The notes beneath the pieces were generated by a model. It was given only the letters and a program-made list of their open reading frames with translations. It did no database searches and was not told the origin of the DNA. A stretch of 64,000 nt of DNA from contig OZ024741.1 of the NCBI GenBank assembly GCA_964016885.1, positions 96,782,001-96,846,000 of the forward strand. Direction: 5' to 3'. Below, piece by piece: positions 2,831 to 56,885 of this stretch (its first letter is position 1; every line of letters begins with the position of its first letter). This DNA is from Eledone cirrhosa (taxonomy: Eukaryota). The translations under genes were made by a program, and so were the position numbers.

Positions 2831-3430
2831 TATATACATATATATATATATATATATATATATATATATATATATATCTATGTGTATATGTGTGTGTGTG
2901 TCTGTGTGTTCGTGTGAATGTATGTATATATATGTAGAGAGAGATTAGTAGATCCCCAATGTTTATCGTTAATTAAGCACAATTACATATGGTACTCAAT
3001 ACATTAGTAGAGAATAGCCAGATATATTATATTATAGAAATTACTTCTACAGGACTAGAACTATTTCATTCGTAAGACTCAACAGGACTATTCTATTTAT
3101 TTCTTACGAATCAGGCAGCACTTGTCCCAAAGGAGTCATTTCTATAATAACATAAATAACTACTTACACAAGAATATAAATATGTTGTGCGTATATATTT
3201 ATATATATAATATATATATATATATATATATATATATATATATATATATATATATATATATATATATATTGTTATACTGTGGGAGGGTCATGTTGCCAAT
3301 AAGAAACACACGCACCAGTTGCTTTCACTTCAATTTATTAATATTTATAAATTTATAAATTTGCAAATCTACAAATTTATAAATTTCTGGTTGGTTGGTT
3401 GGTTCCACAACCAGATAGTTGTTTATATAT

Positions 3431-3475
3431 AGTCATAGTCCTTTCGTCACACACTCTGTGACCTCTTCAGTGACT
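3431..3475 (-). ncRNA. Minimal type I hammerhead ribozyme motif (left arm copy)
   Basis: Reverse complement of 4237-4281. Confidence 0.7.
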
Positions 3476-3867
3476 GGGGATTTCTTTCTTTGTTTCTGTG
3501 CCTTTCCTTTCTTCTGTCCTACGCCATTTTGTTTCTGTGTGTGTGTTGTGTGCTTCAGTTTGCGCATGCGCCACATCCGGGTGTCTGTATGTGTTTGTGT
3601 TCATTTATCTATTTGTTTATTTATTTGCATGTTATTGGTTGGTTGTTTGTTCTATGTGTGTGTGTGTTTTCATTTTGTCCTTAATTGTAAGTTGTGATGT
3701 TGTTGTTCCACTCATATTTTCTATTTAATTTTGGTTGTAATTCTTTTATGTTTATTGCCTCTGTAATTTGTCTAAACATTGCATCTTTTCTGTGTGTAGA
3801 TTCTATTTTTATTTCTATGTTCTCTAATTTACCCTTGTGTTCTATGTTCTCTAATTTACCCTTGTTA

Positions 3868-4032
3868 CACAAGGGTAAATTAGAGAACATAGAAATAGAA
3901 ATAAAAATAGAATCTACACACAGAAAAGATGCAATGTTTAGACAAATTACAGAGGCAATAAACATAAAAGAATTACAACCAAAATTAAATAGAAAATATG
4001 AGTGGAACAGCAACATCACAACTTACAATTAA
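3868..4032 (+). pseudogene. C-terminal fragment of PLE GIY-YIG endonuclease (mirrored on - at 3681-3865)
   Basis: HKGKLENIEIEIKIESTHRKDAMFRQITEAINIKELQPKLNRKYEW fits the R-x3-EA-x-I-x4-P-x-LN pattern ending PLE GIY-YIG domains. Confidence 0.6.
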
Positions 4033-4236
4033 GGACAAAATGAAAACACACACACACATAGAACAAACAACCAACCAATAACATGCAAATAAATAAACAA
4101 ATAGATAAATGAACACAAACACACACAGACACCCGGATGCGGCGCATGCGCAAACTGAGCACACAACACACACACAGAAACAAAATGGCGTAGGACAGAA
4201 GAAAGGAAAGGCACAGAAACAAAGAAAGAAATCCCC

Positions 4237-4281
4237 AGTCACTGAAGAGGTCACAGAGTGTGTGACGAAAGGACTATGACT
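4237..4281 (+). ncRNA. Minimal type I hammerhead ribozyme motif
   Basis: AGTCA-CTGAAGA-G-GTCACA-GAGTG-TGTGAC-GAAAG-GA-CTA-TGACT: 5-bp helix I, 6-bp helix II, AG/CT helix III, CUA cleavage triplet. Confidence 0.7.
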
Positions 4282-54700: not shown

Positions 54701-55025
54701 CCATCATCCACTGGCCCTCTCTGTGGCTCTAAGCCAGCAGAGTCATAACGACCAGGCTGCTCCTTGACAGTGTAATTAGGGGCTCTAACCCTAGTGCTGT
54801 TAGATCGACTCTCCATATTTCTTTTCAATGGTTGACAATACCTTACCGGCGCCACTCGAATAAGGTAGTTATTTAACCCATAAATGGAGCCCTAACAGGT
54901 ACTACCACCCCGGGCCAGGGCAGACCTGGGAGTCATGACAACTAAGGAGTAACTCCACATTCCCCACATCTCCTGAACTCCCGAACTGGAGCCTTGCCAC
55001 TGGATGTAGTTTAATGTCATACCCA
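51715..55025 (-). mobile_element. Near-full-length RTE-clade LINE (APE endonuclease plus reverse transcriptase), disrupted
   Basis: Consecutive minus ORFs: GTLNVRT, GGVGF, SAYSPT, LGDFNA, QIDFIL, SDH (APE); NYRGISL, FIDFRKAFDS, GVLQGDTLAP*, FADD (~52472-52483), FLYLG, LLYGSETW, GRPRLTY, DRDRWR. The stop at 51725 is followed by a (GATA)n tail. Several stops and frameshifts. Confidence 0.92.
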
Positions 55026-55157
55026 ATGTCGAGCCCAAATTCTTTGAATAGTAGGGACGATTTAGTAACGAATTGACCACATCGCTTCAATTATTCATTC
55101 TTTAATAAGGTATACAATCCCGCCTAGTAGTTCATCCGGTTCACCTTTTTAAAGTAT

Positions 55158-55845
55158 ACTAGACCAGCTGTGACCCGTTGGGTCGTGTTCATTTCAAAAT
55201 ATTTTAAAAATCATGTTCACTTAAAAAAATTTATTTAAATAATTAAAACATACACAGACATGTATATAATGTTAAATGAAACTGAAAGGTCTATATATAT
55301 ATACGTGTGTGTATGTATATATATATAAATGTGTGTTTGTATACATATATGTTTGTATATATATATATATGTATGTGTGTGTGTATATATATGTGTGGGT
55401 GTCTGTGATCTATATACACTGGTCATAGACACACACATACACATATATACACACATATATACATACACCCACACTTACGTATATATATATATATATACAC
55501 AGCAACACCACCAGCTCTCTCTCTTCCATTCTCCTTCTCTGTCTCCTCTGCCTCTCTCTGTGTCTCTCTTTCAATCTACTCTCTCACAACCTCTATCTCT
55601 TTCTCTCTATCCTTCTCTCTAACTCACTCTCTCTGTTCATGAAGGTACCCAGAAAACCCATATCTCGGGATCCCGTGCTTGGATTTACGTGAAACTTGTT
55701 TTATTCCATTTGTATTCCCATTTCAGGTTCAACTTCCTTTCAAAGTATTTTCCCATTATGCGCCCTTTTGGCTGTATTACATTACAGACACACAAGCAGG
55801 CAATCAATCAAACAAGCAATCAATCACAGGCTTTTAGTAATATAT
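55158..55845 (+). mobile_element. Possible non-autonomous Helentron/Lep1-like element
   Basis: Starts TACTAGACCAGCTGTGACCCGTTGGGTCG (short hairpin), has internal microsatellites, and ends with ACAGACACAC-type repeats then GCTTTTAGTAATATATA. Confidence 0.3.
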
Positions 55846-55989
55846 AAATTGGGTTATGTGTATATAGCTATGCATGATTTTATGTGTCTATCCTAGGATG
55901 TGTGTCTATATCTATATATATAAGGTAAAGTAAGGTTTCGTGTAGGTCTGCACATGAGCGTGTAAGTTTATATATGTATATATATATAT

Positions 55990-56885
55990 ATATAAATGTA
56001 AGTATGTATGTATACGTACATACATATATGTATACAGACGTACAGTAGCATGCATATATATATATATATATATATATATATATATATATATATATATATA
56101 TATATATATATATATATATATATATATATACATACAGGTACACATACATATATGCACGCATCAGTTTAGCGGACGCTTATTATAACGCAGCTTTGTTCGT
56201 TTGTCAACAAACTGAACAGCCTGAATTTATGCCATACTGTGTTAAGGCAACCACGTCACCTTTTTGTTCAACACTGACACAGGAACGATGTACTAGTTTC
56301 AAGCTTGTTAGCTATCATCAGCACCGTTTACCCATCTGCCAGATAGTTGAACGTTCAAAAGTATATACTTTCCTTATGAAAATTAACGGCTGAGCAGCCT
56401 AATTTGCATATTGAGTGAGTTAAATTGAGTGAGTTAAAGCGTGCATATATGTATGTGTACCTGTATGTATATATATATGTATATATTGGTAAACGGAATA
56501 GAAAATGCTGACAAATTGTTCACAGTTGAAAAATGGTTTAATTAGGAATAAAAGAGTATTAGTGATTGTATGGGTTAGTATTCAGTTGTGGTTTTAAGTT
56601 TTTAAGTTTTTACCGGTTGCGCATTTCTAAATGCTTTTCAAAAATAATTTTGAGATAGAGTGTCCGTGCTGTTTGCTCTGAATATATTTATATATTTGCT
56701 ATGTATATATTTGCTATGTATATATATATATATATATATATATATATATATATATATATATATATATATATATATATATGCATGCTACTGTACGTCTGTA
56801 TACATATATGTATGTACCTATACATACATACTTACATTTAAGTAAGTGCCATACTAAGAGTGAGAAATGAAATTTCGTTTTCATT
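55990..56885. mobile_element. Dispersed fold-back copy of the 35-36.7 kb HHR family (minus arm ~55990-56420; plus arm ~56439-56885, interrupted at ~56487-56716)
   Basis: Reverse complement of the ~470-bp unit, followed by a forward CATGCTACTGTACGTCTGTATAC...GAGAAATGAAAT segment. Confidence 0.85.
56286..56326 (-). ncRNA. Minimal type I hammerhead ribozyme motif (CTGATGA core)
   Basis: Minus strand CGGTG-CTGATGA-TAGCTAACAAGCTT-GAAAC-TA-GTA-CATCG. Differs from the 35.9 kb copy only at the variable core position 7. Confidence 0.8.

Follow-up and report, generated by a model that had tools for sequence, protein, structure and literature searches.

Among the closest described systems are the insertions of EN+ Penelope-like elements (PLEs). 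Head-to-head copies are the most frequent PLE arrangement and have palindromes at the junction (Arkhipova et al., 2013, PMC3846280), and this arrangement is described as typical of PLEs in the portion of Craig (2021) consulted. The consulted sections of PMC8557442 describe an inverted 5′-truncated copy at the 5′ end, a tail of 30–40 bp and (TA)n targets, and call the mechanism undefined. In vitro, both target strands are cut and extended, there are two reverse transcription (RT) start sites that match the tail, and a dimer is predicted (PMC11167929, in the sections consulted, which contain no discussion of inverted copies). The head-to-head pattern is already known for PLEs. A literature search found no paper proposing double target-primed reverse transcription (TPRT) or twin priming for PLEs, although Evgen'ev and Arkhipova (2005) and Arkhipova (2006) may contain it.

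The stretch of DNA analysed here (the window) is 64,000 nucleotides long, and ten fold-backs had been listed in it in an earlier note. Self-comparison of the window detected an inverted repeat near all ten of the listed positions. They are numbered FB1 to FB10 in the order of that note, and as units they occupy 8,661 of the 64,000 bases. (TA)n adjoins most of the outer ends, and is absent from the centre of every orientable unit. The outer ends match the 3′ ends of the respective families, and host flank is never duplicated. The features are as follows, where HHR is the hammerhead ribozyme motif.

2399..2824, plus strand: FB7-family copy that is not folded back and contains an HHR (2691–2772); the basis for orienting FB7.
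3266..3866, minus strand: FB1 left arm, an EN+ Penelope-like element 3′ end, with a 26-nt tandem duplication adjoining the centre.
3867..4447, plus strand: FB1 right arm, with a GIY-YIG C-terminal fragment (3868–4029), the 3′ UTR/pLTR and a minimal HHR core (4242–4270).
4448..4504, plus strand: FB1 tail, extending an open frame of 27 codons whose initial Met is inside the pLTR end.
4563..5209, minus strand: FB2 left arm, about 1.4 copies of a 472-bp unit, with a variant HHR (4801–4871) and an 80-nt outer extension.
5211..5454, plus strand: FB2 right arm, beginning precisely at HHR stem I (HHR 5211–5301, core CAGAAGA).
6633..6874: FB3, minus arm 6633–6723 (HHR 6667–6704), plus arm 6726–6810, tail 6811–6874, with a hairpin centre.
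6888..7135: FB4, strand not assignable; the loop at its centre is 4 nt long, and it has an extension that is unpaired.
7289..8806, minus strand: FB5 left arm, made of HHR units of 310 bp that are retrozyme-like; there is a jump inside the arm at 8419/8420, and the outer end is at unit position 9212.
8807..9562, plus strand: FB5 right arm, 2.4 units with HHRs at 9046 and 9356; its outer end lies about 40 nt further 3′ (tail).
9576..9899: FB6 (FB5 family), minus arm to 9757 and plus arm from 9755, arms not nested; the junction is the unit's own 16-bp inverted repeat, with 3-nt microhomology.
33686..34279: FB7, minus arm about 33686–34210, plus arm 34211–34279, the latter beginning at the HHR stem-III palindrome.
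34684..34997: FB8, arms 34684–34770 and 34805–34891, tail to 34997; its sole HHR-like sequence is a degenerate core at 34950.
35049..36697: FB9, a short minus arm (35049–35168) and a plus arm from 35166 made of HHR units of about 470 bp, joined with 3-nt microhomology.
55993..56885: FB10 (FB9 family), minus arm 55993–56421 (HHR 56284–56328) and plus arm 56439–56885, with a filler junction and a tail at the right; the plus arm is broken by about 210 nt of other sequence, and the arms are not nested.

The tails at 4448–4503, 6811–6874 and 34892–34997 had been described as unpaired, and the arm alignment confirms this. FB7 had been placed at 34096–34278; the fold-back is present, but its left arm reaches to about 33686 rather than 34096, as shown by the homologue. 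A SINE with a 13-nt duplication is located at 35346–35526, and is a later arrival inside FB9.

The identification of the fold-backs as Penelope-like elements or retrozymes is supported. The 54-residue ORF end of FB1 has eight matches at E ≤ 1e-3, seven of which were aligned, and the two longest of these contain the GIY-YIG core, which makes the support for a C-terminal GIY-YIG domain in FB1 indirect. The relatives carry a YIGETSRS core, with a Cys-x-Cys-x-x-Cys linker upstream of it. FB1 has no RT domain, its truncation point being 3′ of the RT. Following the description in the consulted part of PMC8557442, it would fit a Neptune/Nematis-type PLE, a clade suggested by motifs rather than by a tree. 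No Pfam family was matched by the FB1 ORF fragment or by the seven aligned relatives, and a word-index protein search with the FB1 ORF end gave no match. In a word-index protein search, the ORF at 39240 had one match. The 27-codon frame in the pLTR end of FB1 runs in frame through the 57-nt tail and is probably the start of the ORF, which has been located in the pLTR end and tail before (PMC3846280).

In FB2, FB5/6 and FB9/10 the repeats are tandem and non-coding and every unit has a single type I HHR; on these features they appear retrozyme-like. Non-LTR retrozymes are defined by a unit of 150–450 bp; the 310-bp unit lies inside this range and the units of about 470 bp lie slightly over it. 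The tails measure about 40 nt in FB5/6, 57 nt in FB1 and 50–60 nt in FB9/10. A Penelope-like identity had been proposed in the earlier note, and the GIY-YIG ORF end, the HHRs, the tails and the inverted 5′-truncated copies bear it out. The FB9 HHR, used as a search pattern, had no match in metagenome contigs, no relative was found in viral contigs, and there were no RNA runs among the holders listed by a run search.

The orientation of the units relies mainly on the hammerheads. Our own descriptor scan found 13 structured matches in the window, compared to a mean of 0.03 per shuffle (30 shuffles), and a relaxed descriptor found 16, compared to none in 10 shuffles; Rfam at gathering thresholds gave no matches. 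A type I HHR is present in the pLTR or unit of six of the eight families. FB1 is oriented by its ORF end (3868–4029) together with HHR cores at 3442 (minus) and 4242 (plus), and FB2 by its variant HHR with an 8-bp stem I, at 4801 (minus) and 5211 (plus). FB3 (6667, minus), FB5, FB6, FB9 and FB10 are oriented through hammerhead motifs, and FB7 solely through the homologous copy at 2399–2824. FB4 (6888–7059) has no HHR and no informative ORF and has no orientation. FB8 (34684–34891) has a degenerate core lacking stem I, of a kind to be read with caution, as one-mismatch HHR cores are also present in both of two unrelated control regions, and is not reliably orientable.

All eight orientable units, from six families, have a minus left arm and a plus right arm; that is, they are head-to-head with their 3′ ends toward (TA)n. 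The probability of this by chance is 0.5^8 = 0.004, or 0.5^6 = 0.016 if counted by family. The earlier note had all ten units orientable with 3′ ends outward. The outward direction holds for eight out of eight, whereas FB4 and FB8 cannot be assigned. It is also not a new rule, being published already (PMC3846280), and since this polarity is textbook for PLEs the rule itself adds little. Moreover, it is true only for strand switches free of (TA)n, and so depends on cutting the units at (TA)n. The right arm of FB5 and the left arm of FB6 point inward across the (TA)10 at 9561–9580, and a second inward-facing pair is formed by 38949–39160 and 40387–40475. At 40388 a candidate tail-to-tail junction fell short of significance (50 of 500 shuffles), and the pairs 1359/1843, 57710/58271, 61420 and 11596 are not assignable in orientation.

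Inward pairs of this type would be expected if the arms were separate insertions into one (TA)n tract, or inverted duplications made later by repair, with the polarity an artefact of how the units are delimited. The jump inside the FB5 left arm points in the same direction, while the TA-free orientable centres, and outer ends that are family 3′ ends with no duplicated host flank, argue against it. The relatives of FB1 outside the window bear on the same question. Alignment of the FB1 ORF relatives gave 80 of 94 confirmed loci from metagenome contigs (L001–L080), and 32 of the 80 have an inverted repeat. A fixed rule classified 18 of the loci as head-to-head, three as tail-to-tail candidates and one as internal. 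After inspection there are 16 head-to-head and no tail-to-tail, in six single-linkage groups (18 and three with nothing dropped), figures which carry a slight bias toward head-to-head from the flanks, with a median of 831 upstream and 696 downstream. L027 was dropped from the head-to-head count, its palindrome being upstream of the family homology, and so was L069, whose left flank is identical to that of L059. The tail-to-tail candidates were rejected: L013 lies beyond a TA run, L079 is outside the homology of the element, and L078, which we take to be MITE-like, has terminal inverted repeats of 39 bp that are flanked by TAA/TTA.

Target duplications of 10–11 nt bound the entire unit in three of nine outside loci tested (L050, L059 and L074), all at non-microsatellite sites. 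With a chance of 0.0056 per test, three out of nine gives P = 1.4e-5; a duplication of at least 10 nt is absent from the other six. For the insertions in the window, target duplications are not readable, since they would be inside (TA)n. A single duplication around the whole of each of these three relatives is hard to reconcile with separate insertions, as is the finding that none of the three tail-to-tail candidates among the 80 loci belongs to the element. L006, whose arms are just 77% alike, is more easily explained by separate insertions or later repair, which overall we consider quite improbable. The duplications at non-microsatellite sites also mean that a symmetric (TA)n target, which the earlier note had made part of the mechanism, is not required: the relatives have the same structure elsewhere.

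The junctions are of mixed anatomy. The earlier note had suggested looking at the centres for microhomology or filler, and both were found, the microhomology being short. FB1, FB3 and FB4 have hairpin centres with loops of about 3–4 nt. FB1 is a near-perfect hairpin, with two 580-nt arms and a 3-nt loop. A duplication of 26 nt is present at its centre, and FB10 has a short duplicated filler. The junctions of FB2, FB5 and FB7 are on or beside intrinsic stems. Microhomology of at least 3 nt is seen at five of 16 junctions with a reference (eight outside, six in the window and two read joints), compared to 7% by chance (P = 0.004; four junctions and P = 0.024 with L070 dropped), where the null comes from the unit of a single family and the junctions were placed by visual comparison with references that have diverged. 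The arms are nested in FB1, FB3, FB7 and FB9, and non-nested in FB6, FB10, L037 and L059, while FB2 and FB5 are ambiguous. Where the arms are non-nested, neither can be a plain copy of its partner.

Some of this anatomy would follow from self-priming, or snap-back. Here a single antisense strand would bend back on its own 3′ end and serve as template for the sense arm, with the endonuclease resolving the hairpin at the site that lacks the tail. Arkhipova et al. (2013, PMC3846280) proposed a similar model, with self-priming on an antisense template. Self-priming would account directly for the small loops of FB1, FB3 and FB4, for the position of the FB2, FB5, FB6 and FB7 junctions at intrinsic stems, for the nested arms, and for L011, which has a 47-nt inverted arm at its truncation point, the outer end of this arm not being an element end. 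It needs extra steps for the four non-nested cases, and also for the spacers of 260–4,588 nt that separate the aligned arms in most outside loci, and it does not predict the joints found in reads (below), which are well off symmetry. We therefore regard self-priming as unlikely. The argument from nestedness is weakened by L059 and L069, which have a common left flank, yet one arm has a further deletion, indicating that arms lose sequence after insertion. Non-nested arms could accordingly stem from later deletion, and the same erosion is the reason why composite arms were not accepted as demonstrating fold-back bridging.

One 310-bp unit (9015–9324, plus strand, which is the HHR sense) was mapped against one contig set and three RAD runs. 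It was found in 619 contigs and in 5,757–9,226 reads per run, and its tandem joint was seen in all four sets. Two joints between opposite strands exceeded the thresholds, and both read as head-to-head. The joint 9053/9200 is present in two and three reads, and must be head-to-head, because its shorter side has 44–49 letters, whereas just 39 lie to the left of 9053. The joint 9209/9288, with one shared letter, is present in 98, 110 and 133 reads (one start each) in three samples of one study, and fits head-to-head alone, provided that the copy has the reference letters there. The two joints are 147 and 79 nt off symmetry, respectively, and away from the listed intrinsic stems. Among the loose ends listed, those followed by (TA)n include 9221 (seven contigs, and 340 reads in X23) and 9247–9252 (279 reads in X23). 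In the window the FB5 family ends at unit positions 9204–9212 and 9250–9253, and in FB9/10 the short and tailed ends are about 50–60 nt apart. There are two fixed 3′ ends, about 30–40 nt apart.

The window's own junctions are not among the joints listed from the reads, where the 1% threshold and the AATT cut site at 9113–9116 could hide them. This is what would be seen if the fold-backs were chimeras of sequencing or assembly, and the RAD libraries used here are chimeric at their AATT cut sites. Nevertheless, the aligned arms, at 88–99.5% identity, differ by both substitutions and indels and only one arm has a tail; a strand-switch joint recurs in three samples; and the same anatomy is found in unrelated assemblies and in the literature. 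An artefact is therefore very improbable indeed.

The best mechanism for the fold-backs is target-primed reverse transcription from both ends of the target, to which we give a probability of about 0.6. Each fold-back would have arisen in one insertion, the inserted DNA being either a Penelope-like element or a non-coding hammerhead repeat that such an element had mobilised. The GIY-YIG endonuclease would nick both strands of an AT-rich target, and each target 3′-OH would prime reverse transcription at one of the two start sites of the element, so that the tail is included or left out, or in some cases at an internal position, as appears to have happened in L037 and L050. This would place the 3′ end of the element at both target ends. 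Both cDNAs would be antisense and 5′-truncated, and the centre would be closed by microhomology of 1–4 nt, by an intrinsic stem, or by filler. In a subset the stop points would be coupled: the cDNAs would share the RNA 5′ end, or one would fold back and bridge to its partner, and the centre would be a near-perfect hairpin.

Two-ended priming accounts for the polarity, the pair of fixed 3′ ends, the duplications in relatives and the non-nested arms, and in the window both arms were probably produced, and joined, in a single event. The proposal of the earlier note that both cut ends of the target prime is consistent with the two fixed 3′ ends, the duplication-bounded head-to-head relatives and the non-nested arms. 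Its further suggestion, that joining two independently truncated cDNAs would be sufficient, is not supported: the stops of the FB1 arms coincide within about 3 nt, for which the probability is 0.4–3% under independent truncation (simple exponential model). This coincidence keeps fold-back synthesis alive, and means that two-ended priming needs a coupling step. The near-symmetric centres of FB1, FB3, FB4 and L011 are counter-evidence to two-ended priming.

A wider proposal, which we put forward tentatively and hold to be possible but doubtful, is that Penelope-type enzymes routinely use double TPRT. A dimer would start synthesis from each of the nicked ends, using the element's two start sites and in many cases a single RNA. 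To close the centre, one cDNA would fold back on an intrinsic stem, frequently that of the ribozyme itself, and bridge to the other. If true, double TPRT would tie the in vitro result of two cut strands and two start sites to the structure of inverted pLTR plus tail, and two-ended priming would be a means by which retrozyme arrays are written into genomes. The value of the locus may lie in its varied junctions, which favour two-ended priming in which the closing step is coupled. Self-priming and two-ended priming make differing predictions for nested arms and shared variants, and a high-copy young family, for example the 310-bp unit, could decide between them computationally on the whole assembly.

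L1 twin priming (Ostertag and Kazazian) has the same polarity, two primers and a short central microhomology, but its segments lie side by side with scarcely any overlap. The earlier note had drawn this distinction, correctly: the fold-back arms overlap, and most often begin at the 3′ sites of the element itself. A further comparison is with EN+ PLE insertions. In the consulted parts of PMC3846280 and PMC8557442 these are complex, with partial tandem copies, an adjacent inverted 5′-truncated copy and a tail of 30–40 bp, and the window shares with them the polarity, the palindromes at the junction, a tail at one end that probably encodes the ORF start, the type I HHR in the pLTR and the (TA)n targets. 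It differs in that its units are mostly short and non-coding, are dense (8.7 kb of 64 kb), and in some cases have unpaired extensions of 55–105 nt. FB1 resembles the C-terminal GIY-YIG PLEs of Neptune/Nematis in the YIGETSRS core and Cys linker of its relatives and in having the end of the ORF followed by an HHR, and differs from them in lacking an RT domain, the clade being suggested by motifs alone. The non-coding tandem HHR units of 310 bp (FB5/6) and about 470 bp (FB2 and FB9/10) resemble the metazoan non-LTR retrozymes, as described in the consulted parts of PMC7229834 and bioRxiv 10.64898/2026.07.22.740005; the word "inverted" does not occur in the consulted main text of PMC7229834. Unlike non-LTR retrozymes, the arrays in the window switch strand head-to-head, and end at paired 3′ sites like those of PLEs.

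The hammerhead ribozyme (HHR) in FB2 (the fold-back at 4563-5454) is a variant with the core CAGAAGA, and is found in both arms:

4801-4871, HHR variant in the left arm of FB2
5211-5301, HHR variant in the right arm of FB2

The stem-I strand that opens the right arm is perfect: it is identical to the 3' strand read in antisense, and two of its letters are not those of the left-arm copy. A template switch possibly took place at stem I of this hammerhead.

A further, older fold-back, outside the ten designated FB1 to FB10, is seen at 3022-3157 (68% overall). Its left arm carries a degenerate HHR-like core on the minus strand, which shows weak similarity to the 310-bp unit, the non-coding HHR repeat of the FB5/FB6 family (12/500 shuffles). 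This fold-back is therefore probably also head-to-head, with both 3' ends outward. No orientation was obtained for the inverted pairs or hairpins adjoining (TA)n at 57680-58394, 1359-1914 and 61420-61479.

Two additional HHR families are present in the window:

38949-39160, 40387-40475 and 61766-62002, three copies of one family (core at 61818)
1915-2316 and 50700-51470, unfolded copies of another family with HHR (core at 51114)

The first two copies of the former are inward-facing, 1.2 kb apart and about 82% identical, and are probably separate insertions. An HHR core at 51450 on the minus strand faces the latter family's core at 51114 over a short TA run. The open frame at 39240-39926 is a second Penelope-like remnant; it matches GIY-YIG weakly (Pfam E 0.025) and contains a cysteine motif.

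Among the endonuclease-related loci from metagenome contigs, L059 (1-932) and L069 (1902-2661) apparently hold one head-to-head insertion present in two assemblies, the copies differing in that one has lost additional sequence from its left arm. In L078, a MITE-like element of 473 bp (804-1276) lies directly behind a Penelope pLTR (terminal repeat); its terminal inverted repeats are 39 bp long, and it is flanked by TAA/TTA.

Broken frames on the minus strand of the window (51725-54891 and 41502-42209) were judged by eye to be LINE endonuclease/reverse transcriptase-like. One short interspersed repeat has many copies:

10914, 24243, 35346, 41051, 42190, 43490 and 46290-46900, short interspersed repeat

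The copy at 35346 lies inside FB9 (the fold-back at 35049-36697) with a 13-nt duplication, and three copies stand in tandem near 46.3 kb. We take this repeat to resemble cephalopod SINEs.
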